Source: a virus
Virus record (IMG/VR): IMGVR_UViG_3300047472_000449
Reading direction: 5' to 3' (one strand)
Length of the DNA: 64,000 nt
Each line of letters opens with the position of its first letter. Position 1 is the stretch's first letter. The notes beneath the pieces were generated by a model that saw nothing but the letters and a program-made list of their open reading frames with translations, was not told the DNA's origin and searched no databases. Both the position numbers and the translations under genes were made by a program. Positions 4,368 to 44,233 of this stretch are shown here, in pieces.

Positions 4368-5984
4368 TTACATTTTGCAGAGTTGCCAGATGGTGTTTGC
4401 AGAAACCACGGCACCCCGGTAGTAGGTTGCACCACCATAAGTCATCTGTGTATCTTGCCCTTGTCTGGTGTAAACCACAGAGCCGTTCAAATAGACGATG
4501 GTGTGCATGTTGTGATCCATCAACATCTGATACGTCCACTGGGTATTACCGGCGACATATTGGCAGGTGCTTTTTGTTCCTGTTGCTTGCTGCGTCACGT
4601 ACTGATTGGCCAGAGTTTGCGTTTCTGTCCTGTACGGCACAGCAGGGTCAGGCACCCATCCGCCGTTGTAGGTGTACCCTGCTGCGCCACGTTGTTGGTT
4701 GATGTAGCAATAGGCCGCTTGTGTAAACACGGTTCCAGCATTCACGGTTGAAACATCTGGGCTCCACGCCGAACAGCTGTAATAGCCGCTGGAGTTTGCC
4801 CAAGCTGTGAAGTCCATCAGGTAGGTTCTGGTGGTGGGCTGGCTACCAAGTGTCTGGCTTTCAGCGACAGGCACACCCACATTGCGGATGGCACCTGTGT
4901 AGGTTTCAGACTCGCGATCCTGACGGGTGCGGCTCTGATTGACGGAGCAATAGGCTGTTTGATTGAACTGCGTAGCCGTTGTGTAAGCGGCTGGTGACGG
5001 CGAATAAGTGCCGCAGCCGTAAAGTCCTGACGAGTTGGCCCAGGCCGTATAAACCGGCGAGGTCGCGACCCATGTTTCCATCGTGCCGGTGGCATCCTGG
5101 CTATTGCCCTGATTGGTCAGTGTGCGGTTTTCATTAGCTACCCCCACCGACACAACCTGATTGGTCAGGTGGTCTTTGTACGATTCGGCGCGGGTGCGTG
5201 TCTGGTTCAATTGGCAGTCAGTGGCAGTCTGCGTGAACTTCAGTCCTTTGCCGACAGTTTCAACAGCGGGTGACCAGTTGGCGCATTGGTACGCCCCGCC
5301 TACCGCAGTCCAGTCGCCCAGTGTAACCGTGTAGGGTCGGGTGGCGGTCTGACTGTTCAGGGTCTGCTGTTCTGTTACTGATGCGCCATTGTTGCGAATT
5401 TCCGACGTGAATTTCTCCTGTTCGCGCTCCTGGCGCTGGCGCTCCTGATCGGTTTTACAGGTGCTGGATGTCTGAGTGAAATTGGTCGTTGCGGTGTATG
5501 TCGAAGGGTTTGGCGACCATGCTGTACAGCCGTACAGAGGGTTGGTGTCGATCCAGCTGGTATAGGTCGGTGCAATACCCAGCCAGTTTTCTAGAATACC
5601 GACTGCATCGCGTGTCGCTGACACGGTGATGGTGCGTTTAATGGTGTAGCGTGGCCCGTCTTTGACTTCTTGATTATTAATATTGTTGACACGGTAATTC
5701 TGGGCGCCCTTTTCCTGATTTTGTTGGCAGTCAGTGGCGGTTTGAATAAAGGACACGCCCTTGCCCTGAGAGGCAGTGGACGGTGACCAGTTTGAGCAAC
5801 CGTATTCGTCGCCAACATCCTCCCAATTGTCTTCATACTTGGTGATTCCCTTCCAGTTGGGCGGGACTTGTGAGGAAACTAGGGTGTAATTGTAGCGGAA
5901 ATTTCCCTGATGCTCTGTTTCTGCATAAGCGCCTGTGGCTGTAGTAGCCACGAGTAAGGCGAGTGCTAGGGTGATTCTTTTCAT
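4368..5984 (-). CDS. secreted repeat protein with 5 TSR-like W..C..WSP..TQT..C..QxRxR modules (538 aa), putative adhesin
   Basis: Sec signal peptide (AYA cleavage); repeats countable in the translation; paralogue of 6241-9411. Confidence 0.8.
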   Translation of the reverse strand: MKRITLALALLVATTATGAYAETEHQGNFRYNYTLVSSQVPPNWKGITKYEDNWEDVGDEYGCSNWSPSTASQGKGVSFIQTATDCQQNQEKGAQNYRVNNINNQEVKDGPRYTIKRTITVSATRDAVGILENWLGIAPTYTSWIDTNPLYGCTAWSPNPSTYTATTNFTQTSSTCKTDQERQRQEREQEKFTSEIRNNGASVTEQQTLNSQTATRPYTVTLGDWTAVGGAYQCANWSPAVETVGKGLKFTQTATDCQLNQTRTRAESYKDHLTNQVVSVGVANENRTLTNQGNSQDATGTMETWVATSPVYTAWANSSGLYGCGTYSPSPAAYTTATQFNQTAYCSVNQSRTRQDRESETYTGAIRNVGVPVAESQTLGSQPTTRTYLMDFTAWANSSGYYSCSAWSPDVSTVNAGTVFTQAAYCYINQQRGAAGYTYNGGWVPDPAVPYRTETQTLANQYVTQQATGTKSTCQYVAGNTQWTYQMLMDHNMHTIVYLNGSVVYTRQGQDTQMTYGGATYYRGAVVSANTIWQLCKM

Positions 5985-6200
5985 GGCTTACCTTTAGTGT
6001 TAAGCAAAACTTTTGGTATACCAATAATATCATGCAAATGTTGTTGATTTAATGCCGATACTGGCTTTCTATTGACTGTTTTTTAAATATCTGCTCGCAA
6101 AGACAAATATCTGAAGATAATCAATAAATTATCGTAAAACGATAATAAATAAATAACTAGAAGTTTTGCTTAATTAATTGGTGCTGCCGATGTTCGTAAT

Positions 6201-6227
6201 AAAAACCCCCGGTATTCCGGGGGTTTT
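6201..6227. terminator. intrinsic terminator
   Basis: AAAAACCCCCGG-TATT-CCGGGGGTTTT. Confidence 0.8.
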
Positions 6228-6240
6228 GATTGAATCACCT

Positions 6241-9200
6241 TTATCCTCTGCACACTTGGTAAAGGTTGGTGGATACCATGGCGCCTCGTTTGTAGACAAC
6301 ACCGTTGTAGGTGTATGAAGTGACTTGGTTGGCGAGCCCGGCCTGAAACTGAACGCCGTCCCACATAACCATGTTGAGCACGGTGACATGATCCATCATC
6401 TGCACAAAACCCCACTTGTTGTTTGCGTCATATCTGCACACAGTCGTTGGTCGAGTGCCGTAAGCCGTGTTGTAGATCGGTTGACCACTGTAGGCAACCG
6501 TTTCCGTTCTGTAAGGCACTGCCGGGTCAGGAACCCATCCGCCATTATAAATATAGCCCGCTGCACCACGCTGCTGATTCCGGTAGCAATAAGCGGTCTG
6601 GGTGAAGGCTACGCCTGAGTCGTAGGTGGATGGATCTGGGCTCCATCCGCTGCACGAATAGTAGTCGCCTGCCCACGCCCACGCGTTAAAGTCCATCAGG
6701 TACGTTCTGTAGGCCGGTTGACCTCCAATCGTTTGGCTTTCCGCTACCGGTGCGCCGACGTTGCGAATAGCACCCGTAGTGGTTTCATACTGACGATCCT
6801 GACGATTGCGGCTCTGGTTCACGTAGCAATAGGCCGTTTGAGTGAACTGCGTTGGTACGGTGTAGGCACTTGGATCGGGTGAATAGGCGCCACAGCTGTA
6901 CAGGCCCGAAGAGTTAGCCCAAGCGGTGTACGTTGGTGTGGTGGCTGCCCACGTTTCCTTGGTTCCAGTGGCTGCACGGGTACTCGACTGAGAGGCGATG
7001 ACGCGACCTTCAGATCTGTAGGTACTCTCTGGGTCTTGCAGGAAGTTACCATTCACCAGGATGTAACCTAGGCGTCCGCGCTGCTGGTTTCTGGAGCAGT
7101 TGGTGGCTGTCTGGGTGAATCCTGTTCCTACTGTGACCGTAGCTGGATCGGGTGACCAGTTGGTGCAGTTGTAGGCATCGCCGTTCCAAGCCCAGGCGTT
7201 GAAATCCTCCAGGTAGGTGCGGGTGTTGGTCTGACCTGCGACCGTTTGTGTCTCGACAACCGGAGAGCCACTGTTGCGAATGGCATTGGTGGTGGTTTCC
7301 GTTTCACGGTTCTGTTTACTGCGCGTTTGATCCGCAGTGCAATTGGTCGCAGTCTGAGTGAATTGGGTTCTCTCAGTGAAGCTGCTTGGCAACGGCGTCC
7401 AGTTCGAGCAGTTATACGGCGCTGCTACGTTGGCCCAAGCGGTGTAGCTCGGCGTGGTAGCAACCCATGTTTCCTTCACGCCAGTGGCGCCTTGGGTACT
7501 GGTTTGGCCGGTCAGTGTTTGCGCTTCGCCAGCCACCGTCACAGGTACGGTCGAACCGGTTTTGTGATCCACATAAGATTCAGCACGCGTGCGCGTTTGA
7601 TCCTGTTTGCAGTCGGTGGCGGTTTGAGTGAAAGCTTGACCCACAGTCACGGTGGTTGGCGAAGGTGACCAGTTCGAGCAGGCGTATTTAGCGCCGTTGT
7701 TCGTCCATGAGCCCAAGGTGACTGTGTAGGTGCGCGTGGCCGACTGAGCGGTCAGGGTTTGCGCTTCGCCCACAACTGAGCCCTTGTCACGGATGGCCAA
7801 GGTGGTGGTTTCCTGCTCGCGATCCTGGCGATTGCGCGTCTGATCGGTTTTGCAGTCGGTGGCGGTTTGAGTGAAAGAACCTGTCGCCGTTTTGCTGGAG
7901 CCTGCTGGTGACCAGTTGCTGCACGCGTACTGACCGTTGGTGGTTGTCCACGCGGTGTACGTTGGGGTGGTTGCCATCCAAGTTTCTTTGGTGCCAGTTG
8001 CGGTCTGGGTGCTGGTCTGATTGCTCAGCGTCTGGCTTTCAACCGTGTTGCCCGCCGCAACCACTGAACCGGTCTTATGATCGACATAGGACTCGGCGCG
8101 AGGGCGTTTTTGATCCTGTTTGCAGTCGGTAGCAGTCTGAGTAAAGCTCTGGCCAATGGTGACGGTAGCAGGTGCCGGTGACCAGTTCACACAAGCGTAT
8201 TTTGCGCCATTGTCCGCCCACGCGCCCAGGGTCACGGTGTAGCTGCGTGAAGCTGATTGACCGGTGAGGGTCTGTGCTTCTGCAACCGGAACGCCCTTGT
8301 TGCGGATCTCGCTGGTGTTCTGCTCCATTTCACGATCCTGACGCGTGCGCGCCTGATCGGTGGTGCAGTTGGTCGCGGTCTGTGTGAAGGTGCTAGTGCT
8401 GGTTTTAATCACCGGGTTCGGTGCCCAGTTGGTGCAAGCATTTTTCGCACTGGTATCGACCCAGGCGGTGTAGGTTGGCGTCGTGGCCATCCACTGCTCA
8501 AGCGTACCGGTCGATTCCTGACTGCTGGCCTGACTGGTCAGCGTGCGGTTCTCGTTGGGTTTTGCCACTTGAACAATCTGATTGGTCTGATGGTCTTTGA
8601 ACGACTCAGCGCGGGAGCGAGTTTGATCCAGTTTGCAGTCGGTAGCGTTCTGGGTGAACTTGATGCCTTTGCCGATGGTGGTCACGGCTGGCGACCAGTT
8701 GGTGCAGGCATAGGTTTCGCCCACCGCTGTCCAGCCACCCAAGGCGACCGAATACGGTCGAGTGGCCGTTTGACCTGTCTTGGTTTGCTGTTCGGTGATC
8801 GGCCCGCCACTGTCACGGATTTCCGACGTGAATTTCTCTTGTTCACGTTCCTGGCGCTGGCGCTCTTGGTCTGTTTTGCAGGTGGTGGAGGTTTGCGTGA
8901 AATTGCTTGTGGTGGTGAAGGTCGAAGGGTTCGGTGACCATGCCGTACAGCCGTACAGCGGGTTAGTGTCGATCCAACTGGTGTAGGTCGGCGTAATGCC
9001 TAGCCAGTTTTCCAGAATGCCAATGGCATCGCGTGTGGAGGAAACAGTGACGGTCTGTTTGATCGTATAGCGAGGCCCGTCTTTAACTTCCTCGTGAGTG
9101 ATGTTGTTGACGCTGTAATTCTGTGCGCCCTTTTCCTGATCCTGATGGCAGTCTGTCGCGGTTTGAATAAAAGCGACACCCTTGCCCTGTGTGGACGTTG

Positions 9201-9411
9201 AGGGTGACCAGTTTGAGCATCCGTATTTATCGCCCACATCCTCCCAGTTATCTTCATATTTTGTCGTCACCGTCCAGTTGGGCGGTAACTCCGAAGAGAC
9301 TAGTGTGTAATTGTAGCGCAGTTTGGAGGGTGATTCGATTGAAGCTGCTGCATGAACACCTGTGGCGGTGGTAGCCATAAGGAGTGCAAGGTGTAACGCG
9401 TGTTTCTTCAT
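6241..9411 (-). CDS. large secreted repeat protein with 11 TSR-like modules (1056 aa), putative adhesin
   Basis: Sec signal peptide; 11 C-x-x-(W/Y)-(S/T/A)-P repeats in alternating A/B types. Confidence 0.85.
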   Translation of the reverse strand: MKKHALHLALLMATTATGVHAAASIESPSKLRYNYTLVSSELPPNWTVTTKYEDNWEDVGDKYGCSNWSPSTSTQGKGVAFIQTATDCHQDQEKGAQNYSVNNITHEEVKDGPRYTIKQTVTVSSTRDAIGILENWLGITPTYTSWIDTNPLYGCTAWSPNPSTFTTTSNFTQTSTTCKTDQERQRQEREQEKFTSEIRDSGGPITEQQTKTGQTATRPYSVALGGWTAVGETYACTNWSPAVTTIGKGIKFTQNATDCKLDQTRSRAESFKDHQTNQIVQVAKPNENRTLTSQASSQESTGTLEQWMATTPTYTAWVDTSAKNACTNWAPNPVIKTSTSTFTQTATNCTTDQARTRQDREMEQNTSEIRNKGVPVAEAQTLTGQSASRSYTVTLGAWADNGAKYACVNWSPAPATVTIGQSFTQTATDCKQDQKRPRAESYVDHKTGSVVAAGNTVESQTLSNQTSTQTATGTKETWMATTPTYTAWTTTNGQYACSNWSPAGSSKTATGSFTQTATDCKTDQTRNRQDREQETTTLAIRDKGSVVGEAQTLTAQSATRTYTVTLGSWTNNGAKYACSNWSPSPTTVTVGQAFTQTATDCKQDQTRTRAESYVDHKTGSTVPVTVAGEAQTLTGQTSTQGATGVKETWVATTPSYTAWANVAAPYNCSNWTPLPSSFTERTQFTQTATNCTADQTRSKQNRETETTTNAIRNSGSPVVETQTVAGQTNTRTYLEDFNAWAWNGDAYNCTNWSPDPATVTVGTGFTQTATNCSRNQQRGRLGYILVNGNFLQDPESTYRSEGRVIASQSSTRAATGTKETWAATTPTYTAWANSSGLYSCGAYSPDPSAYTVPTQFTQTAYCYVNQSRNRQDRQYETTTGAIRNVGAPVAESQTIGGQPAYRTYLMDFNAWAWAGDYYSCSGWSPDPSTYDSGVAFTQTAYCYRNQQRGAAGYIYNGGWVPDPAVPYRTETVAYSGQPIYNTAYGTRPTTVCRYDANNKWGFVQMMDHVTVLNMVMWDGVQFQAGLANQVTSYTYNGVVYKRGAMVSTNLYQVCRG

Positions 9412-9682
9412 GGCGCACCTTTTGCGGTTAATGATAACTATTAATTCAATAATAATATCATGTAATCATTGGGTTTTCATGAATCAACATCGTTATTTTA
9501 TGCTTGCTGGACAATAACTGCCTTATTTTAATCTCCGCTTAATAATTAGCAGGGCATGTGATTGCGTTCTTTTAAAACTTGTTTGCTGCACATCTGATTA
9601 ACCAGCCAGGAGGCTGAAAGTTCCAGTCGGTGGTTAGTCTCCCTCTACCTTGATAAGCCTGTGGACACTAACTCGCGCCCAT

Positions 9683-14434: not shown

Positions 14435-15016
14435 TTAAGGCAGTGTGGGGGTAAACTCGAAGCGGCTGGCGGCTTTGGTGTCGGTGAAACTGTCGGCCAC
14501 TCGCTTACCGGTGAAGGTGCGGTTGACCAGAGAACCAAACACGGTCTGAATCGAGTTGTTGAATTCTTCGACGCTGGCGTTATAGATCTGGATTGCCGCG
14601 CCGACATTTTCTTCCTGCTCGACAATTTCGCGCATCAGGTTGGTCAGGATCTTCGACGCTTCAAGGTTGGGATAGGCTTCAAGTGCCACTCGTAGTCCGC
14701 CCAGCAGCTGTTGGGTGCCCGATTTGGCAGCGGCAAGGCTTGCATGGTCGGCATCGGCAGGCAGGTCGCTGAGCTGGCTGCGCAAGCTGGTGATCGACTT
14801 GAGCAAGCCGCTCTCGTACTCGTAGTAGCTTTTCACGTGCGGCACCAGTTGATCCAGAATATTGGTTTTCTGGCGCTCGTAGGTGATGACGTTGGCCCAC
14901 GCACGGCGAATGCGGTTGGCGTTGGCGATGATGCCGTTATGGATCATGATAACGGCGACACCGATAATAAACACAATGAACAGGCCGATAACAAGCGGCA
15001 CTTGGTATGATTGCAT
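14435..15016 (-). CDS. lemA: LemA family protein
   Basis: N-terminal TM, N..I...N.I.RAWANV, EAYPNLEAS, and YNASV..FN motifs typical of LemA. Confidence 0.9.
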   Translation of the reverse strand: MQSYQVPLVIGLFIVFIIGVAVIMIHNGIIANANRIRRAWANVITYERQKTNILDQLVPHVKSYYEYESGLLKSITSLRSQLSDLPADADHASLAAAKSGTQQLLGGLRVALEAYPNLEASKILTNLMREIVEQEENVGAAIQIYNASVEEFNNSIQTVFGSLVNRTFTGKRVADSFTDTKAASRFEFTPTLP

Positions 15017-15030
15017 GATGGGTCTATTCC

Positions 15031-16083
15031 TTATCCGGTGATTGTTTGGGGTTCGGCAAAGTTGTCGTCGTGTTGCTCGGCCAACGTGTGAATCTGTTGC
15101 AGGGTGTACGTGAGTTTCGGCAAGTCGATTCCGGCTTCCAGCGCGCTGTAGAGCGGTTCAGGCTTAGAAAGCGCCAGCTGATTCGGGAATGGCTCCAGAA
15201 TATCGTCATTGTTGAAGCTCATGCAGAGCTGCCCCAGGTGCGAAAATTCCAGATTCAGATCGCCGTAATGCTTGGCCATTTCCAGCAAGTGCAGAATGGT
15301 GGTCGGTTTCAGGAACTTGACGCATTCCACTTCATTGGCGCCATTGGCGTCAAAGGTGCGGTTGAAGTCTTTGTGCGCAGTGTCCACCCGGTGCTTGAAC
15401 TCTTTCTGCCCATCGTTCTGGACTTTGATGTTCTTGACCCAAGGGAAATCAATCACCACGCAATGCCGGTAAAAGGTGTCATACACGGTACGGGTTTGTG
15501 TGCGCATGCCGCCTTTGCCGTCTGACACAAGGGTCGTTTCAATGCGCTGATTGACGTACTGAAACGTCTGGTACGTGTACGCCAGCGCATGCAGGGGGCC
15601 TTGGTAAACCCCTTGCAGGGCATAGGTGATTTCGCGGCTGTAGTTGCCCCGGTCAAAATCGCCAAAATCGCGCTGAAGCTGGTGCAGGATCTGGTCTTTG
15701 GACAGGGGGATGTTTTTAAGCCCGTAACGCATCAAAGCCGACCTTTGCAGAATACTGCCAGTCAGGTCGGGGATTTGCGCGCTTCGATAGATCATGAAAC
15801 CGAGGGTGCAGATCAGCATGACCGCGCCGAGGATCGCGCTGCCGAACATCAGTGCGGTGAGTTCTGGGCTCAACAGCCGTCCACTGCTGATGTTCATGAT
15901 CAGCGGCACGGTCAGCAGGGCGGAAAACAGGGCGAACAAGGCCGCTGGCGTATTGCTGTACTCCAGCGGCCCTTGGTGATCGCGAAACGATTTCACAACC
16001 GCCAGCAGGTCGGTTTGGGTGCAAGGCTGATCGAGCCGGTTCGTGGCGCTCTTGATCAGCGCGCTCAGGGTTTTGTTGCTCAT
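15031..16083 (-). CDS. membrane protein with two TM helices and a large soluble domain (DUF3137-like LemA partner)
   Basis: Two hydrophobic helices; immediately upstream of lemA; family call by recall. Confidence 0.65.
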   Translation of the reverse strand: MSNKTLSALIKSATNRLDQPCTQTDLLAVVKSFRDHQGPLEYSNTPAALFALFSALLTVPLIMNISSGRLLSPELTALMFGSAILGAVMLICTLGFMIYRSAQIPDLTGSILQRSALMRYGLKNIPLSKDQILHQLQRDFGDFDRGNYSREITYALQGVYQGPLHALAYTYQTFQYVNQRIETTLVSDGKGGMRTQTRTVYDTFYRHCVVIDFPWVKNIKVQNDGQKEFKHRVDTAHKDFNRTFDANGANEVECVKFLKPTTILHLLEMAKHYGDLNLEFSHLGQLCMSFNNDDILEPFPNQLALSKPEPLYSALEAGIDLPKLTYTLQQIHTLAEQHDDNFAEPQTITG

Positions 16084-16100
16084 CAGCCTTCGGTTCCCAA

Positions 16101-16583
16101 TCAGTTGGTGGAGAGCAGGCCGAGACCTTTCATGACGTTCAGCACTTCGCTTTCCGTCCACTTCGGCACGATGTTGTTGCCGCACAGGTTCTGCCACTCA
16201 TCGGCGGTCATCTTCTCGACAATGGGCAGCCAGACCGAGCGGTCGTCTTCACCGCAATGGGTGTAGACAAAAACGCCGTCATCCCATTCCATCGGTGCAT
16301 CATTCACCGCGAAGGCGATGGTTTCCGCCAGAATGAACAGACCGCCGCTCATCCAATCACACGGGATATCAGCGTGCTTGGCGTCCCACGAATCTGCGGG
16401 AAGTTCGTTTTGGTGGCGCACCTCGCCTTTACGCTTTGCTTGCAGCGAGTGCGAGTTCTGGTAAATCCCCTCGGCAATTTTGGCTTCCCAGAGAAACATC
16501 TGACGGGCAATGAAACCAGCGGTAATCGGATCTGCCGAGGTGAAAGTGTTTTTTGGGGTGGCAGCGACGGCGGCTTGGGTCAT
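16101..16583 (-). CDS. hypothetical protein (160 aa)
   Basis: GGAG RBS; promoter 16644-16682. Confidence 0.7.
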   Translation of the reverse strand: MTQAAVAATPKNTFTSADPITAGFIARQMFLWEAKIAEGIYQNSHSLQAKRKGEVRHQNELPADSWDAKHADIPCDWMSGGLFILAETIAFAVNDAPMEWDDGVFVYTHCGEDDRSVWLPIVEKMTADEWQNLCGNNIVPKWTESEVLNVMKGLGLLSTN

Positions 16584-36851: not shown

Positions 36852-37306
36852 ACCGAGGCCTCCGAGGCAACTTCCAGCTTGAAACGATTGGTTGGGTACT
36901 GTGCGACCGCTTGATTCAGCACTTTCACCGCTTCGGCAAACGAATAGTGCGCGATTTCAACCGGATCAGTGGTGATCGGCAAATCGTCATCTTCGTCCTC
37001 ATCGCTTTTCTCGGTCAGCCAGAGCTGCGTATGGCCTTCCACCCGAATGGTGTACTGCTTTTGCTTGGCCGATGCCTTGGCCGCTTTCCACTGCGTCATG
37101 AAATACTCGACGCTGGAGCGGTCAATCATGAAAAAGAATGCGGTGTCGCCTTCGCGCTCGCCCTCTTCTTCGTACTCGCAGGAGGCAAACTGCGTGCGCA
37201 ATTCGGCATCAGCGACACGAATCGCCGCGTCAACGCCTTCAATCGCCATCATGACGCGGCCATGGCCCAGCTTCGCTTCGCCTTTTTTGACTTCAAACGC
37301 TTTCAT
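36848..37306 (-). CDS. hypothetical protein (152 aa)
   Basis: Promoter 37342-37380. Confidence 0.75.
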   Translation of the reverse strand: MKAFEVKKGEAKLGHGRVMMAIEGVDAAIRVADAELRTQFASCEYEEEGEREGDTAFFFMIDRSSVEYFMTQWKAAKASAKQKQYTIRVEGHTQLWLTEKSDEDEDDDLPITTDPVEIAHYSFAEAVKVLNQAVAQYPTNRFKLEVASEASV

Positions 37307-37341
37307 GTTCAGGGCCTGTCGCAGTCATTTGGAGAGTGTTC

Positions 37342-37380
37342 ATTATGACGAACTTAAACACGAATGTCAATGCCATTTAC
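37342..37380 (-). promoter_or_regulatory. sigma70 promoter + variant operator
   Basis: TTGACA-17-CATAAT; GTCAATGCCATTTAC. Confidence 0.75.
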
Positions 37381-37488
37381 TCTAAAGGGAAGAAGAAACA
37401 AGTTGACCCCAACCATTGCTGGTCGGGGTCATCAGGGTACAGCTGGGGAGCGCGATTGTCGCAGGGACAAGGCTCTAGCGCAACACGC

Positions 37489-38388
37489 TTAGGCCGCTTT
37501 GATCAAGTTGAATTGCGGCGCGTGATGAGCGAACGCGTCAATCGGAATGATCACCGACTTTCCGCGTACCATCTTCGCGGCTGCCTTGCTGTCAGCGTTG
37601 GCAACGTAGTTGGTGGCGATCTCGATTTCGTCACCGTTCACGCCCACCACTTCAACCAGATGGAAGCAGGTGGTTTGGCTCAGATCGTGCCACAGCTGGC
37701 CCTCATTGATCGCCGGGAACGCCGTCTGCATGACATTTTCCAGGGTCTCGCCGGTCGGCACAAAGCGGCGTTGCAGTAGGCCTTGCTCCATCAGTTCGGT
37801 CAGGTTGTTGCTGACGAACTCGTAACCGCCCTTCACGCCGTTGAAGCGGCCTTCTTGAGCAAAGGTCGGCTTGGCTTGCGGCGTCGCCTGTGGACGGGCG
37901 CCAGCCACGTCGGTGAAGTAACGGGTGACGATGCGCACCTTGCCTTCGGCCTTGTCGCCGATCACCTGCACATAACGCATGTGCGAGCCTTTCAGTTCAC
38001 GCCAGATCTCACCGGTCAGCGGGCCTGCGTCAGGCACAGGGGTGATGGTCAGCGTACCCAGGTCGATCACCGGAGCCGTCGCGGCCATGGTCACTGGTGC
38101 GTACTTGGACAGGGTGCGGGCGAAGTGAATCAGGCCCAGCTTCTTGTCGTTGAAGGTCTTCAGGTTCGCTGCAACAAAGCTGTAGTTGCCCGCTTTGCCG
38201 TCGAAGCGACTGACGCTGGCGTAATCCAGTCGGCCATTGTCCAGATTCTTTGGCAGGGAGAGCCGGTCATTCGAGCGGCACACCGAGATAATTTCAACAC
38301 AACCAAAGGCGTCGGCTTCCTTGCTGACCATGAAGAAGCGAGCTTGCGGGGCGTTGTTTTTCCAGATCTGGTACTTATGTGGCTTCAC
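37489..38388 (-). CDS. protein with three tandem beta-rich (SH3/Tudor-like) repeats (~299 aa)
   Basis: (G)Q/EIW....V(E/Q)V(I/V)...RF.G..G.Y.FV occurs three times; GTG start after AAGGA; promoter 38455-38493. Confidence 0.7.
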   Translation of the reverse strand: MKPHKYQIWKNNAPQARFFMVSKEADAFGCVEIISVCRSNDRLSLPKNLDNGRLDYASVSRFDGKAGNYSFVAANLKTFNDKKLGLIHFARTLSKYAPVTMAATAPVIDLGTLTITPVPDAGPLTGEIWRELKGSHMRYVQVIGDKAEGKVRIVTRYFTDVAGARPQATPQAKPTFAQEGRFNGVKGGYEFVSNNLTELMEQGLLQRRFVPTGETLENVMQTAFPAINEGQLWHDLSQTTCFHLVEVVGVNGDEIEIATNYVANADSKAAAKMVRGKSVIIPIDAFAHHAPQFNLIKAA

Positions 38389-38454
38389 GACAACAATTCC
38401 TTCGTAAGAACAGGATAAAACGTGAGGGTTGGGGTGTTTCGTTTTGATGGCGCC

Positions 38455-38493
38455 AGTATAGCGCAGATGACACAATATGTCAATCACACTGAC
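38455..38493 (-). promoter_or_regulatory. sigma70 promoter + operator
   Basis: TTGACA-17-TATACT; GTCAATCACACTGAC 38479-38493. Confidence 0.85.
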
Positions 38494-38579
38494 AATTATA
38501 TTTTGTAATTTTGAACGTGACTTCCAGACAGCACAATGTCGGTTGTTACCGGCATTGATCTGATAGGCTATGGTCGAAC

Positions 38580-38999
38580 TTATACACGCCGAACGATGCT
38601 GTATCCACATTCCGCTGGCGAGGGACTCGCGTTGGAGGCGACCGCCACTTCATACAGAAAGTCTTCGAGGGAAGGCTGATCATAGGCATCAGTGATCTTG
38701 CCTCCGCCCCAGCAGTCCTCATAGGCCTCACGCGCTGCCTTTTTGAGCTTGCTCTGGCTGCGCACGATTGCGTTGAGGGTCAACAGGTATTCATCACCCT
38801 GGATCTGCGTCACCGTGGAGCCAGCGATCACTTCATAACCGCAGTCCGAGGCAAATTCGGAAGGATTGTTGGCGAGTTCATAGAGGCAGTCTTCAAGTGT
38901 CTCCACGTCGGCCATGTCTTTGCCATTACTGATCACTTCCTCGGCATCGAGGACAAGCAGCAAAACCTGAATCTTGACGGGGGTTGGAGTGGGATTCAT
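38580..38999 (-). CDS. hypothetical protein (139 aa), paralogue of 39017-39526
   Basis: Internal repeat LEDxLYE.A.N...xCGYE; shared LKKAA..A...CWGG. Confidence 0.75.
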   Translation of the reverse strand: MNPTPTPVKIQVLLLVLDAEEVISNGKDMADVETLEDCLYELANNPSEFASDCGYEVIAGSTVTQIQGDEYLLTLNAIVRSQSKLKKAAREAYEDCWGGGKITDAYDQPSLEDFLYEVAVASNASPSPAECGYSIVRRV

Positions 39000-39016
39000 G
39001 AATACCGCCTTTTGAT

Positions 39017-39526
39017 TTAATGGAAGGACTTGCGGCCTGAGCACCAGAGTGGGCTGACGATCTCAAAACCACAGTAATCTCGGTCAAGCGAGTTGTTTGA
39101 ATTGACGGCCACCTCGTACAGATAATCTTCGAGGGTGGGTTTGTGGTAGTTTTCTTTAAACGTATTACCGCCCCAGCACTGCAAGAAGGCTGCGTGCGCG
39201 GCCTTTTTAAGCGCGCCTGCGTGGTGGAGCTTGGTTGCGATGAACAGCAGGTACTGATCATCCATGATGAACTTGACACTTGAGTAAGCCGCTAGAAGCT
39301 CATAACCACATTTTTCTGGTTTTTTGATCGGGTTGTTGGTCATGGCATACAGGCACGCTTCCAGCGTTTGGGTGTCAATGCTCTCGCTGTTGACTTCTGG
39401 GAGCTTGATGCCATCGAGCAACAGGCGCCCGGCATCTGCATTTTCCCGGATGCCACTGATGACTTGCGCAGGATTGGTTACCTTGAGCAACACCTTGGCA
39501 ATAACGATGGCTGGCATGTCCTGCAT
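39017..39526 (-). CDS. hypothetical protein (169 aa), paralogue of 38580-38999
   Basis: As above; promoter 39556-39594. Confidence 0.75.
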   Translation of the reverse strand: MQDMPAIVIAKVLLKVTNPAQVISGIRENADAGRLLLDGIKLPEVNSESIDTQTLEACLYAMTNNPIKKPEKCGYELLAAYSSVKFIMDDQYLLFIATKLHHAGALKKAAHAAFLQCWGGNTFKENYHKPTLEDYLYEVAVNSNNSLDRDYCGFEIVSPLWCSGRKSFH

Positions 39527-39555
39527 GGTGACTATCCTTTCCTGGCTGAGCGTCC

Positions 39556-39594
39556 ATTTTAACGAGGTCGTAGCTTTTTGTCAATGCCATTGAC
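39556..39594 (-). promoter_or_regulatory. sigma70 promoter + operator
   Basis: TTGACA-17-TAAAAT; GTCAATGCCATTGAC 39580-39594. Confidence 0.85.
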
Positions 39595-39608
39595 TGCGAT
39601 TGCCTGCA

Positions 39609-40085
39609 TTACGCCCAGGAAATGACAGTCCCGTATTTCAACTCGATGGCGTCAGGGCCGTACTGGCTCTGCATGGTGCGCATGATTGCACTGACGGTTG
39701 GGTGCTGTCGGACAAATGGCTCAGCAGCGACCACTTCATGCGGTTTGACTTCGACCGCCTTGCCGTCTGAGCGACCATCAAGGTCGTGGCCGAAGTTATT
39801 GCCCTGCTCATCCTGGACATGAAAATTGAACAGCCAGATCTGTTGCAGGTAGTTGACCGCCTGAATGTCGTCCCCAAACGCGTCACCCAGCAATTCGTCA
39901 GGGCGTACGCTCTCACGGAATTTTTTCTGGCGATCTTCACGGACTTCGCCGCCGCAGGTTGGGCAAAATCGGCTATTCGACTTGTTTCCGCACTGGCAAC
40001 AAACGGTCGTGCTGACGGTGTACTCGACCCGTTGAGGTTTGACCTCAAAATAAAAGCCGATGTGAATGGATAGTTCAGAACTCAT
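39609..40085 (-). CDS. zinc-ribbon protein (158 aa), paralogue of 40256-40756
   Basis: CCQC...FCPTCG; C-terminal YGPDAI.L..G. Confidence 0.75.
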   Translation of the reverse strand: MSSELSIHIGFYFEVKPQRVEYTVSTTVCCQCGNKSNSRFCPTCGGEVREDRQKKFRESVRPDELLGDAFGDDIQAVNYLQQIWLFNFHVQDEQGNNFGHDLDGRSDGKAVEVKPHEVVAAEPFVRQHPTVSAIMRTMQSQYGPDAIELKYGTVISWA

Positions 40086-40255
40086 GAGATTCCCTTGATG
40101 GGCATGCGGACGCCCGCGATTTATATTTATCGCTTATTATCCCTGCCAGGGCATTCGCGTCAATGATTTTTGAAGAACTAGGCTAGCAGCAGAACCAGAG
40201 CGACCGTGGCCGTTGTCCACGAAGGTGCCCAGCGGGTGGCTTGGGTGTGCCTCGG

Positions 40256-40756
40256 TTATTTCCAGTAGCCGAAGGTGCCAAACACCAGCCCGATGGCGTC
40301 GGGGCCGTAGGTGCCGGTCATGTACTCCATAATGCGCTTTACCCTGGCATCGCGGAGAATTGGCTCTCTGACATTGATCATGGCCTGTAGATCAAACTCG
40401 ATGTCTCCAGCTTGTCCCTGGAGATGGCCGTCAATGCTGTGGTGACCGTCAGCGGTAGAAATTTCAAAGTCCAACCGCCAGATGTTCGTGTCATTGATCA
40501 GCCACACCAGATGGCTCAGCTCGGACGGCAGCAGGTGGTCGTGATGGCTCGACATGAAGTTTTGCTGCTTGGGCTTCACAGCCAAGGGGCTGCCGCAGTG
40601 TTTGCAGAACTTTGATAGCTCTGTGAAGGTTCTGTTGCACGAATCTGCGTTCGTGCAGGCGATGACTTCTACAGCGCGGGTGACTTGCTGAGGTTTGACC
40701 TTTAGGGCGTAACCGGCGTGAACAAAGTAGCTACCCATGCTGCTGACCTTAATCAT
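40256..40756 (-). CDS. zinc-ribbon protein (166 aa), paralogue of 39609-40085
   Basis: CTNADSC...FCKHCG; YGPDAIGL. Confidence 0.75.
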   Translation of the reverse strand: MIKVSSMGSYFVHAGYALKVKPQQVTRAVEVIACTNADSCNRTFTELSKFCKHCGSPLAVKPKQQNFMSSHHDHLLPSELSHLVWLINDTNIWRLDFEISTADGHHSIDGHLQGQAGDIEFDLQAMINVREPILRDARVKRIMEYMTGTYGPDAIGLVFGTFGYWK

Positions 40757-40767
40757 GTTAGACGGTT

Positions 40768-40795
40768 ATTATATCACCCCGACCAATAATGTCAA
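40768..40795 (-). promoter_or_regulatory. sigma70 promoter
   Basis: TTGACA-16-TATAAT. Confidence 0.65.
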
Positions 40796-40814
40796 TGATA
40801 TTTTCTGCGGAGAC

Positions 40815-40842
40815 AAAAAAGCCCTACCGAAGCAGGGCTTTT
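40815..40842. terminator. terminator downstream of ssb
   Basis: AAAAAAGCCCT...AGGGCTTTT. Confidence 0.75.
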
Positions 40843-40897
40843 CTTTGTGTTCCTTTCTTGCTATCGTTCATTTCTCAGATGAGAACGAGAACGATTC

Positions 40898-41404
40898 TCA
40901 AAAAGGAATGTCGTCGTCGAAGCTGTCAAAATCCGGTGCCGGTTGCGGTGCGGCTTGCTGCGGTGCCGACTGCTGTGGGCGAGACTGCTGTGGGCGCGGT
41001 GCCGACTGGCGCGGAGCTTGTTGCTGGTTGCCGCCTTGGCCCTGCTGGTCACCCTGTGGACGACCGCCCAGCAGTTGCATGGTGCCGTTCACGTCCACCA
41101 CGATTTCGGTGGTGTAGCGCTTGATGCCGTCCTTTTCCCACTCGCGGGTTTGCAGCTTGCCCTCGATGTAGACCTGAGAGCCTTTGCGCAGGTACTCGCC
41201 AGCGATCTCGGCAACCTTGCCGAACATCGAAACGCGGTGCCATTCAGTCTTTTCGACTTTCTGGCCGGTCTGCTTGTCGGTCCAGCTTTCGCTGGTCGCC
41301 AGACTCAGGTTGGTCACGGCATTGCCGTTGGGGAGGTAACGAACTTCCGGGTCTTGGCCGCAAGTACCTACCAGAATCACTTTGTTCACGCCACGTTGGC
41401 CCAT
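40898..41404 (-). CDS. ssb: single-stranded DNA-binding protein
   Basis: [18 protein letters not shown]...EWHRV..FGK.AE...[16 protein letters not shown]; C-terminal DDDIPF. Confidence 0.98.
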
Positions 41405-41459
41405 GATGTATGTCCTCTCAGTTCTGTGTGTTGGGTTGGTGTTCGCTTTTGATGTGCCC

Positions 41460-41488
41460 AGTATATCGATCTTGTCCTACTATGTCAA
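41460..41488 (-). promoter_or_regulatory. sigma70 promoter of ssb, weak second half-site
   Basis: TTGACA-17-TATACT. Confidence 0.75.
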
Positions 41489-41496
41489 CATCATTT

Positions 41497-42537
41497 TCAA
41501 TGTTTTTCAAAAAACTTTCCCTCTTCCATCATCAAGAAGCGTGGCGGTGATGGCGCTATCGGGCGCAATACCGTCATGCCGTTGTCGCCATTGTTGCTGT
41601 GGATGGCGTGATAACAGCCCCGAAAAACCATTTCTTTACCTTGGCTGTTCACCTTGTGGCTGAAGGTGCTCTCTTTCGGGGTGTTGAGCAGTCCTTCGTT
41701 AGGAATCTCGTACTCATGACTGCAATAGCGCAAGGTCGCCCTGTCGCTCGGGTGATAAACATAAATATCATCCGGCCTGAGCGAGACAATGCTGTGCGGG
41801 GTGAAGTGAGCCATGCTTGGGTGCAGGGGTGCGCACACGAGGCCGATGGCGCCTACCAGGGTGCGCGGATCGACCGGCCTGTCGTCAGGATAGCCTTTGT
41901 GCCGCAGTTTCTGCCAAGCGGCCAGTCTGTTGCTGATTCGGCTGAATTGCTCAGGCGCCATAAGCGCATAACGGCTCCAGTAATCGCGCTGGCTTTGATT
42001 GAATTGCTTGATTTGCTCTTTGGTAACAAAGGCAGACTCCCAGCCTTTGGCGCAAACGTAGAGAGCAAAATCAATGCTACATAATGCCTTGTGTTCCTTT
42101 TCTATCAGTCGATCCCAGCCCACGCACGCCAGCACGCACCAGCCGACGATGATTTTTGCCAGCTCCGGCTCACCATCGAACGCCTGCACGACATTGATAT
42201 ATTGATCTTTAGCGCTGACAAAGCCGTTCACCAATTCCAGATTGCCCGATGCGGTGACCTGAAGTACTTTGGTTTTGACGCCAAAACAAAAAGCCAGCAC
42301 CGCTGCTGTTTCACTTAGGTGTTGCAGCGCCAGGATTTTAAAGTCTTCGGCATGGCGGCAGTCTATCGACTTGTCGCCAAACTTCAGGCTGCCATTGACC
42401 AACGTGGATCGCTCAATCATTTCGCGATGGGTTGCCGGTTTGAGGGCCTTGGGTGGTTTGACCTTCTTTATTTTCTTGTTGGCTTTGTCACTTTTTTTGT
42501 CTTGCTTTTCTTTCTTCAATTGCTTGAATGTTTTCAT
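41497..42537 (-). CDS. hypothetical protein (346 aa), paralogue of 42585-43460
   Basis: Shared DFK..AL...GN(L/F)ELVNG..SA..QY..AF.G.P.LAKII.GWCV. Confidence 0.75.
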   Translation of the reverse strand: MKTFKQLKKEKQDKKSDKANKKIKKVKPPKALKPATHREMIERSTLVNGSLKFGDKSIDCRHAEDFKILALQHLSETAAVLAFCFGVKTKVLQVTASGNLELVNGFVSAKDQYINVVQAFDGEPELAKIIVGWCVLACVGWDRLIEKEHKALCSIDFALYVCAKGWESAFVTKEQIKQFNQSQRDYWSRYALMAPEQFSRISNRLAAWQKLRHKGYPDDRPVDPRTLVGAIGLVCAPLHPSMAHFTPHSIVSLRPDDIYVYHPSDRATLRYCSHEYEIPNEGLLNTPKESTFSHKVNSQGKEMVFRGCYHAIHSNNGDNGMTVLRPIAPSPPRFLMMEEGKFFEKH

Positions 42538-42584
42538 GGAGTGCTCTTATTATTGACTGCCAATGCTGCTAGTTGAAACTTTTA

Positions 42585-43460
42585 TCAAGCGTACTCAAAA
42601 TAATCACGGCTTCCGTAAAACCGAAGGTGTGTAATTGAAGTGTCGCCACGGACGGACTTGACGGAGGCATGAGTGGCTTTTTGCAGTCGAATGGTTTGCC
42701 CTTGGCTTAACACTTCGACATCTGGAATGTCTTTGTTCTGAAGTGTTTCCAGCGAAACGCCATCCAGCTCCCCAGCACTGACTTGGCAGTAATGGGATAA
42801 GTGCTTAATGACGGTGTATTTGCTTGGGTGGAACATGAAGAAGTTCATATCTGCGAAGCAATAGTTGAAGTAATTGTTGTGGTCGCTGATGGTCAGTTTG
42901 CTGAACTTTGGGTGAAGTGGCATGTGCAGTCTGCCCACCGGCTCAGCGATCTTTGGGCCTGTAAAGGCAGTCGGCACATTATCAATGGCGTCAGTAACCT
43001 TCTGCATGATTGGCAGTCGTTCAAACGCTTCGTGATGGGCAGCCTCCTCCGGCGTGACACCTGCTGCTTTGTAGGCATGCTCACAGATGTAGCCAGCGAT
43101 ATCGCTCTCGCTCCTTGTGGCTCTTGGCTGGTAGCTCCAGGCCAGCGAGGCATACACGCACCAGCCGGTGATGATCTTGGCAAGCTTTGGGTCGCCATTG
43201 AAGGCATTCACCGCAAATCGATATTGCTCGCTGGCGCTGAACAAGCCGTTGACTAGCTCAAAATTTCCATTTTCCAGGTTTTGTAACTGAAGTTTTTCGT
43301 CACCAAGGTGCTGATCAAGCAAGGCTGTAATATGCGCCATGCTGTTTAAAGCAAAGCTTTTAAAGTCCTGCCAGTGCAGGCATTTGACCCAGCCGCCATT
43401 TTGCCAAAGCTTTTCATTGCTTTTTGGGTTGAGGGGAGTCGTCAATAATGGGGTGGTCAT
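42585..43460 (-). CDS. hypothetical protein (291 aa), paralogue of 41497-42537
   Basis: As above. Confidence 0.75.
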   Translation of the reverse strand: MTTPLLTTPLNPKSNEKLWQNGGWVKCLHWQDFKSFALNSMAHITALLDQHLGDEKLQLQNLENGNFELVNGLFSASEQYRFAVNAFNGDPKLAKIITGWCVYASLAWSYQPRATRSESDIAGYICEHAYKAAGVTPEEAAHHEAFERLPIMQKVTDAIDNVPTAFTGPKIAEPVGRLHMPLHPKFSKLTISDHNNYFNYCFADMNFFMFHPSKYTVIKHLSHYCQVSAGELDGVSLETLQNKDIPDVEVLSQGQTIRLQKATHASVKSVRGDTSITHLRFYGSRDYFEYA

Positions 43461-43672
43461 AAAGATTGATCCTGATTAGGGTGTGCTTCAAGCTAAGATA
43501 AACCCCGGCATCATGAACAATAATATGATACAAATCAATATTAATTTCATATGAAATAACCTCATTTTCTGCTTTCGCGCTTCACAAGAAAACACTTTGA
43601 CAATTTATCCGTATTCGGCGATCCAATAATTTAGTATTATTTGACAATAACAATAACCAAAAGGATCTTGCA

Positions 43673-44233
43673 ATGAGCACTTCGCAGAACGACATCGCCT
43701 ATACCGACACTAAAAATCACGTTTACTGGGGGCTGATCCTGGGTGGCATCGTGACCGCGCTCGGGAGCTTCAGCTTTACCAAGGATGTGCATGTCGGGGT
43801 GGGTGCGGCGCTGGTTGCAGCAGGCTTCTGGATGTTCTTCACAGCCTACTTCCACAGCCAGAACGGCAAAAAAGCGATCATGACCCTCAAGCGTGACGGC
43901 ATCTTGCTGCCCGACAAGATTTTCGTCCCTTACGCTGACATCGAGAACATCTGGGCCGGTGATCCCTTCCCGATGAACCCGATGGGTCGTCTGAACATCG
44001 TTTTTCACCTGAACAAAGATGCAAAGATCAAACAAACCCGGCGCTCGCTCAAACTGTCGATGGACAGCTTTTTCTCGCGCTCCTATGCCGGGTGCAATAT
44101 CAGCATGATCGGCAAGAAAAAAACAGCCATGCTCATGGTTCCAGGCCTGCGCCCGTTGGACGGTTCAAAGCAAACCGAAGAGCAAATCATTGATGAGATC
44201 TATGCGCGCATAGAGGCTGCTCAGGAGGCGTAA
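43673..44233 (+). CDS. membrane protein with two TM helices and a PH-like soluble domain (186 aa)
   Basis: Two TM helices then L..DGI..P...(V)PY.DIE.I; terminator 44258-44279. Confidence 0.7.
   Translation: MSTSQNDIAYTDTKNHVYWGLILGGIVTALGSFSFTKDVHVGVGAALVAAGFWMFFTAYFHSQNGKKAIMTLKRDGILLPDKIFVPYADIENIWAGDPFPMNPMGRLNIVFHLNKDAKIKQTRRSLKLSMDSFFSRSYAGCNISMIGKKKTAMLMVPGLRPLDGSKQTEEQIIDEIYARIEAAQEA

Follow-up and report, generated by a model that had tools for sequence, protein, structure and literature searches.

Two Sec-signal proteins built from tandem two-cysteine modules, encoded on a giant plasmid-like Pseudomonas-type replicon

Two paralogous genes for modular proteins

The window analyzed here is the whole of a 64,000-nucleotide stretch of IMG/VR virus record IMGVR_UViG_3300047472_000449, and this study concerns two genes on its minus strand that encode the repeat proteins P0002 and P0001 (Table 1). 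An earlier note, made from the sequence alone, had described both products as secreted proteins consisting of thrombospondin type 1-like repeats. The two open reading frames (ORFs) are open over the spans that it had reported, and its count of 11 modules in the 1056-aa P0002 and 5 modules in the 538-aa P0001 was reproduced by motif counting and by a profile search. Plus-strand ORFs within both genes (e.g., 8257-8937) were set aside as composition artefacts. The contig recorded for P0001 measures 1,136,521 bp, and the replicon from which the window derives is giant, plasmid-like, and of Pseudomonas type, in agreement with the assignment of the two genes to a mobile element in the note.

Table 1. 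Positions of the two genes and of their features in the window
Feature	Position	Strand	Basis
P0002 gene (1056 aa: signal peptide, 11 modules, C-terminal head domain)	6241..9411	-	ORF, translation, 11 profile domains
P0001 gene (538-aa paralog: signal peptide, 5 modules, C-terminal head domain)	4368..5984	-	ORF, translation, 5 profile domains
P0002 Sec signal peptide, aa 1-21, predicted cut after VHA, without lipobox	9349..9411	-	translation; similar N-termini of relatives
P0001 Sec signal peptide, aa 1-21, predicted cut after AYA, without lipobox	5922..5984	-	translation
11-module array of P0002, aa 47-982, subtypes of 90 aa and 81 aa in alternation, each module with a Cys pair	6466..9273	-	motif count, alignment, profile, structure model
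5-module array of P0001, aa 45-466	4587..5852	-	motif count, alignment, profile, structure model
P0002 head, ~74 aa, beta-rich, Cys pair C992/C1054, putative binding head	6244..6465	-	Cys pattern, tail comparison
P0001 head, ~72 aa, beta-rich, C474/C536, putative binding head	4371..4586	-	structure model, tail comparison
CATGATATTATT element 5' of P0002, extended -10 type, putative promoter	9451..9462	-	conserved with P0001 upstream region
CATGATATTATT element 5' of P0001, second copy, putative promoter	6023..6034	-	conserved with P0002 upstream region
GC-rich hairpin and T-run 3' of P0002	6200..6226	-	read from sequence
GC-rich hairpin, terminator-like, 17 nt past P0001 stop codon	4334..4351		read from sequence

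Each protein starts with a Sec signal peptide; the two read MKRITLALALLVATTATGAYA, followed by E, and MKKHALHLALLMATTATGVHA, followed by A. Because residue +1 is not Cys in either of them, neither carries a lipobox. Pfam and NCBIfam scans of P0001 and P0002 detected no autotransporter, RTX, two-partner secretion (TPS), or anchor domain, and no beta-barrel translocator or RTX/type I secretion signal. The C-termini of P0001 and P0002, which read ...QLCKM and ...QVCRG, respectively, have no LPXTG sortase anchor. Translation and scans agreed with the note, which had seen Sec signal peptides and no lipobox, autotransporter, RTX, or membrane anchor.

In the 5' regions of both genes, the CATGATATTATT element is accompanied by an AAAGGT ribosome-binding stretch with identical spacing. 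The two elements are common to both genes and lie at equal distance; the gene duplication took in the 5' region as well. Since each gene has its own hairpin terminator, the two are separate monocistronic transcription units. In the proteins, modules 1-3 of P0001 were 81, 84, and 69% identical to modules 1-3 of P0002, and modules 4-5 of P0001 were 75 and 69% identical to modules 10-11 of P0002. By these collinear matches, P0002 has six additional central modules, and the genes are paralogs in an accordion relation. Neighboring modules shared only 32-46% of their amino acids and modules of the same type at most 74%, and Tandem Repeats Finder detected no long-period DNA repeat.

Anatomy and conservation of the module

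The motif C-x2-[WY]-[STA]-P occurs 5 times in P0001 and 11 times in P0002, and all 16 modules have two Cys residues spaced 22-23 residues apart; an extra single Cys pair lies within the last ~72 aa of both proteins. By alignment, the modules fall into two subtypes of 90 and 81 aa that alternate along both arrays, as the earlier note had recognized. Searched as a profile, the 16-module alignment detected 5 and 11 domains in P0001 and P0002, each at 1e-30 to 1e-33, and matched nothing else in the 64-kb window. W10, C19, P24, F35, Q37, C42, and Q46 were invariant in 16/16 modules. The module motif given in the note held in its overall pattern, but the gap from WSP to FTQT is 10 residues rather than 8, and Q-x-R-x-R is intact in only 11/16 modules. 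One module reads R-x-K at this place, two retain just the R, and both proteins have K instead in their first module.

We took conservation statistics from 1,156 modules of 242 proteins. Q37 was present in 100% of them, W10 in 99%, P24 in 98%, W22 and Q46 in 94%, R48 in 92%, F35 in 90%, C19 and C42 in 89% each, and R50 in 58%. The conserved Trp residues are W10 and W22, which are 12 residues apart with C19 in between. Both C19 and C42 were kept in 1,024 modules and both were missing in 131, while a single module had one alone; this covariation is strong evidence that C19 and C42 pair as a disulfide within the module. The mature proteins contain 15-17% Thr and 14-15% ILVMF and have a grand average of hydropathy (GRAVY) of -0.7, a composition that fits a ribbon without a hydrophobic core. 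A conserved F-R-Y-N-Y-T-L stretch behind the signal peptide was considered as an anchor or donor strand and rejected, as it matches R-x-Y-x-V-x-L, the strand C ending found ahead of each internal module; it is simply where the ribbon starts.

The module family in databases

An exhaustive profile search of 1.84 billion representatives returned 720 protein clusters (50% identity) at E<=1e-3 and 176 at E<=1e-30, which places the module far beyond chance. At least 146 relatives were found by word search in Pseudomonas spp., Hafnia, and metagenomes, all of them unnamed or annotated as 'hypothetical'. Members of the family carry 2-33 modules, the longest proteins reaching 3,073 aa, and the usual architecture is a signal peptide followed by 2-26 modules and a 70-100-aa tail. 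NCBIfam and PHROGs searches gave no match, and P0002 found nothing meaningful among PDB sequences. The module profile, searched against PDB sequences at E<=10, gave two chance matches only (an antibody complementarity-determining region and YdbC). Near-identical DNA was not found in plasmids, E. coli genomes, or phages; a feature-based search of the ESM Atlas returned nothing, and single-protein searches for related loci in genome and metagenome contigs returned no relative. The module is a real family that has no name in Pfam or NCBIfam.

Predicted structure and the G5-E rods

The AlphaFold2 (AF2) model of whole P0001 (33 homologs) was all-beta with a predicted local distance difference test (pLDDT) of ~90 over modules 1-4; its predicted template modeling score was 0.36, and the relative orientation of the modules is accordingly uncertain. 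Modules 5-6 of P0002 (aa 372-590; 92 sequences) were modeled with a mean pLDDT of 91.5 and with 98 in most blocks. In the predicted module, a short strand A with W10 leads into the C-x2-WSP turn, strand B of 22-24 residues holds FTQT, C42, and Q-x-R-x-R, and the return strand C of 18-23 residues heads on towards strand A of the next module. C42, Q46, R48, and R50 have the same parity along strand B and would therefore share one face of it, together with the disulfide; a Trp/Arg stack on this face is plausible. The confident model and the Cys covariation speak for the rod-like, disulfide-bonded character that the note had proposed.

Foldseek searches against PDB gave no match at E<=1e-3 for the whole or the pair model. 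The best of the weak rows were the G5-E rods of SasG and Aap (prob 0.5-0.9), followed by the thrombospondin type 1 repeats (TSRs) of TSP-1 and properdin. In structure comparison, the pair model scored 3.6-4.6 against the G5 domains of Aap, SasG, and HP0197, with 74-81 aa aligned, a root mean square deviation of 4.2-4.8 A, and the whole module spanned, and 2.7-2.8 against properdin TSRs with 50-57 aa aligned. The whole model scored 4.4 against SasG G5 and 3.2, 3.2, and 2.9 against the TSRs of THSD7A, properdin, and TSP-1, respectively.

One reading of these rows links the modules to the G5/E repeats of Gram-positive surface proteins (SasG, Aap), either by remote kinship or by convergence. Like those, they would form a core-less rod of two alternating sub-repeats that holds an adhesive domain at a distance from the cell and may self-associate. 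Besides the top Foldseek rows, the comparable unit size (~80 aa), the alternation of two subtypes, and the rod and 'periscope' concept of the Periscope protein class (PMC8201768) are in line with this reading. However, neither P0001 nor P0002 had a Pfam G5 (PF07501) match at E<=1, and 92 relatives searched at E<=0.01 had none either. The proteins lack an LPXTG or other wall anchor, and the replicon is Gram-negative, with relatives in Pseudomonas and Vibrio. G5 is not known to have a conserved disulfide or a W/R signature, which also counts against this relation, and we consider it very unlikely.

Relation to the thrombospondin type 1 repeat

The thrombospondin type 1 reading of the note found no support in its stated form when the modules were compared with the defining features of the TSR fold. 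The modules have one disulfide and 81-90 aa instead of three disulfides and ~55 aa; across the 1,156 modules, two Cys were found in 89% and none in 10%, not the six of a TSR. A WxxW(xxW) pattern on strand A is absent, W10 and W22 being 12 residues apart. The RxR(xR) pattern on strand B is present (Q46, R48, and R50, with the frequencies given above). With three defining features failing, one holding, and the other comparisons pointing neither way, the TSR label is not earned, and the modules resemble animal thrombospondin repeats only loosely.

This leaves the question of remote homology, in which the modules would be true divergent TSRs, a bacterial branch whose Trp/Arg layered core was cut to one disulfide. 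TSP1_2 (PF23260) is the sole Pfam family that recurs on the repeats, in 5/92 short relatives at E<=0.01. It scored 17.8 bits on P0001, against a cut-off of 27, and did not match P0002, whereas the relatives P0095, P0176, and P0225 exceeded the cut-off with 37.5, 38.1, and 30.4 bits. The matched stretch is always C-x2-W-x-P...G-x2-F-x-Q-x-R-x-C-x3-Q, and this constancy favors homology, as do the same topology (a short strand A that bears W, then strand B with Q-x-R-x-R, then strand C running antiparallel), the shared parity of C42, Q46, R48, and R50, which would put them on the same side of strand B, and the occurrence of TSR structures among the weak structural matches. On the other side, the alignment is confined to positions 29-60 of the 66-position model, about half of it at most, and the passing scores are partly sums of weak repeat matches. 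TSP_1, TSP1_spondin, and TSP1_ADAMTS matched neither the window proteins nor the 92 relatives, and a search of PDB sequences with the module profile, taken as far as E<=10, brought up no TSR. The Cys number, the missing WxxW, and the module length point the same way. The structural comparison suggested in the note gave a confident model of the repeat pair but only weak TSR rows, with no TSR match at E<=1e-3. We regard divergent TSR homology as possible but doubtful.

As a separate observation, the ESM Atlas contains a bacterial cluster of ~896-aa proteins in which the N_methyl domain of type IV pilins occurs together with true TSRs, recognized by Pfam TSP_1 and TSP1_spondin; pilin-like proteins of bacteria can therefore carry genuine TSRs.

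C-terminal head domains

Behind the module arrays, both proteins end in a small domain with its own Cys pair. In the AF2 model the P0001 head has 6-7 short strands. The tails of 129/211 relatives were homologous to the window heads, with two Cys in 108 of these 129, and share the signature ATGTK-x3-C...W-x-G...GGY-x-Y-x-R-G...Y-x-[ILV]-C-R. Searched alone, the C-terminal head found nothing in a set of 5.8 billion proteins. The heads of P0001 and P0002 are 44% identical, as against 69-84% for the matching stalk modules, which suggests that the head varies much faster than the stalk.

Other relatives carry known domains in place of this tail, namely Big_1/Invasin_D3, F5/8 type C (discoidin), FG-GAP propeller, RCC1 propeller, Calx-beta, Fibrinogen_C, and ChitinaseA_N; one of them, P0040, has Big_1/Invasin_D3 domains but no barrel. 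Because these replacement tails are extracellular binding modules, they indicate a binding or adhesin role. By analogy, a distal domain that evolves fast and can be exchanged, set on a conserved stalk, would follow the logic of an adhesin or receptor-binding fibre. Of the adhesin or pilus-tip role proposed in the note, the domain swaps speak for the adhesin part; no link to a pilus was found.

In the ESM Atlas, the nearest neighbor of P0001 aa 473-538 (4371-4568, minus strand) was a phage cluster with the Pfam GP38 long-tail-fibre adhesin, at a query-based template modeling (TM) score of 0.60 over 61 aa. This GP38 likeness, for which neither Pfam nor PHROGs gave sequence support, is only a lead from the model.

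Replicon context and neighboring genes

The pMPCFBP13716 and metagenome copies of the module were located with a back-translated FTQTATDC...Q pattern. The megaplasmid pMPPla107 (972 kb) carries 28 modules in ~11 ORFs, and pMPCFBP13716 (971 kb; CP185741.1) has 30 module matches, while the chromosome of the same genome has none. More distant copies reside on plasmids in Vibrio (300-370 kb) and on megaplasmids in Pseudomonas (320-580 kb), and the metagenome matches lie on contigs of 0.6-1.9 Mb. A module match occurred in only 6/401 sampled Pseudomonas species genomes. The family is concentrated on ~1 Mb megaplasmids of the pMPPla107 type, in every case in solitary genes that lack a secretion or anchor partner; the paper on the pMPPla107 family makes no mention of the module proteins.

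We searched for a conserved partner gene by an all-against-all comparison of the neighbors at 28 loci. This returned only synteny within the pMPPla107 family, which includes an RNA 2'-phosphotransferase gene around the module genes, and nothing common to the window; the idea of a conserved partner was rejected. The co-occurrence with type II or type IV secretion or pilus loci that the note had proposed to look for was likewise not found around the window genes or the examined copies on pMPPla107 and Vibrio pW7G; on pTTS12, a prepilin-type gene is a neighbor. On this megaplasmid of P. putida S12 (NZ_CP009975.1; locus L002, 6644-8537), a 274-aa 'Ig-like domain-containing protein' carries the module, and its gene adjoins that of a prepilin-type N-terminal cleavage/methylation protein. 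A DUF805 gene lies near a module gene in both pTTS12 and pMPPla107. On pMPPla107, seven tandem genes for hypothetical proteins of ~400-440 aa (NZ_CP031226.1, 207366-215293; locus L001, 1132-9059) lie just 5' of the gene for a 981-aa module protein. Five or more of these seven group together as paralogs, and pMPCFBP13716 has the array too.

In the window, the gene directly 3' of P0001 (3530-4219, minus strand) encodes a stand-alone HD_4 protein (PF13328, E 1.9e-7) similar to small alarmone hydrolases and is preceded by a separate promoter, TTGACA-17-TAGAAT. Directly 5' of P0002 (9727-11093, minus strand) are two tandem paralogous lipoprotein genes with the lipoboxes LSGC and LAGC, each preceded by a consensus sigma70 promoter; they have no counterpart beside the examined pMPPla107 and pTTS12 homologs. 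Farther away, a LemA (PF04011) gene stands beside a DUF3137 gene (14435-16197, minus strand), and a single-stranded DNA-binding protein (SSB) gene (40898-41404, minus strand) has ~78% DNA identity to its counterparts on many Pseudomonas plasmids. Within 37000-44000, no other part matches plasmid records.

An exported stalk with a binding head, or a periplasmic protein

Taking these results together, we narrowly favor the view that P0001 and P0002 are exported rod proteins whose stalk, variable in length, displays a binding head at the cell exterior. The megaplasmid would thereby endow its host with an adhesin or with a fibre of the matrix or surface. After Sec export and removal of the signal peptide, each 81-90-aa module would fold into a flat, hydrophilic, three-stranded beta-ribbon, and strand C would pass directly into strand A of the next module to make the array one continuous rod. 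One C19-C42 disulfide, presumably formed by periplasmic oxidation, would staple each module, and stacking of Trp, Arg, and Gln on the same face of strand B probably adds stability. The alternation of subtypes would account for the 32-46% identity of neighboring modules. From the strand lengths, we infer rods of ~30-40 nm for 5 modules and ~70-80 nm for 11. The rod would bear the small disulfide-closed C-terminal domain, or, in relatives, known ligand-binding domains in its place. Beyond Sec, the type II secretion system of the host is our best guess for crossing the outer membrane, and the adhesive function itself is an inference from the relatives.

Several points weigh against this interpretation. 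No anchor, usher, secretin, autotransporter, or pilus gene adjoins the two genes or lies near the examined copies on pMPPla107 and Vibrio pW7G, and the named relatives are all annotated as 'hypothetical protein'. The head has no convincing structural match and was modeled at a pLDDT of only 60-75. Furthermore, the default location of a Gram-negative protein with a Sec signal alone is the periplasm. P0001 and P0002 might accordingly remain periplasmic and serve a non-adhesive envelope role, e.g., structural, sensing, or as a plasmid-encoded barrier to phage or competitors. Such a role would suit proteins that have a Sec signal only and no dedicated outer-membrane export or anchor gene next to them, and whose solitary genes lie amid many small plasmid genes of unknown function; disulfides suit the periplasm equally well as the exterior. 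However, rods of 11-33 modules would, by the estimated lengths, be longer than the periplasm is wide, and the swapped heads of the relatives (discoidin, fibrinogen-C, FG-GAP, invasin-type Ig, and Calx-beta) are typical of extracellular binders. We judge a periplasmic role to be unlikely, and the exported stalk with a binding head remains our preferred explanation.

In a wider and tentative reading, which we think has less in its favor than the stalk itself, the module may be a new core-less beta-ribbon domain family, possibly a prokaryotic sister of the TSR fold, that was amplified to ~10 genes and ~30 modules per replicon specifically on ~1 Mb Pseudomonas megaplasmids, where it would build length-graded surface fibres with exchangeable heads and would thereby alter the adhesion of the host cell, mating partners included. 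What is new here is an unannotated repeat family expanded on megaplasmids; its general kind is known. Nearly all genes of giant plasmids of the pMPPla107 type are of unknown function, and one multigene family among them now has an anatomy and a testable role. The module is a confident, repeatable building block without a convincing solved counterpart. Core-less rod repeats form a small group (TSR, G5-E, SHIRT, and Rib), which it extends to Gram-negative mobile elements. If the weak TSP1_2 link is true, it bears on the origin of the TSR adhesion module of animals and apicomplexans. With their exchangeable heads and tunable stalk length, the proteins would also lend themselves to protein engineering and binding studies.

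Comparison with known systems

Among the closest known systems are the hypothetical proteins of the pMPPla107 family (e.g., WP_054068201.1, 981 aa, NZ_CP031226.1), which have the module family, the architecture, and the plasmid location in common with the window proteins but are only ~41% identical to them and have other neighbors. TSRs (PF00090, PF23260; PDB 1LSL, properdin 6RUS) are, like the predicted modules, elongated, disulfide-stapled, three-stranded ribbons; in both, strand one bears Trp and strand two bears Q-x-R-x-R. TSRs occur in extracellular adhesion proteins, and TSP1_2 weakly and recurrently matches the present modules. They differ in having ~55 aa and six Cys, whereas our modules have 81-90 aa, two Cys, no WxxW(xxW), and an alignment to half of the Pfam model.

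P0001 and P0002 are predicted to share with the B-region of staphylococcal SasG and Aap (PDB 3TIQ, 3TIP, 4FUM, and 8DEO) and the Periscope proteins an elongated beta-sheet rod of tandem ~80-aa units and a terminal binding domain, and they have two alternating sub-repeats and a variable repeat number in common with them. Unlike SasG and Aap, the window modules have no similarity to G5 by sequence or Pfam and carry one disulfide and a W/Q/R signature each, and the proteins come from a Gram-negative megaplasmid, lack LPXTG, and have the putative binding domain at the C-terminus instead of the N-terminus. Unlike Periscope arrays, in which near-identical repeats permit length change by recombination, their neighboring modules have diverged (32-46% amino acid identity), with no near-identical DNA repeats. 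The predicted rod, the 5 versus 11 modules of the two paralogs, the range of 2-33 modules in the family, and the swapped heads all fit the Periscope type, and such rods may project from the cell.

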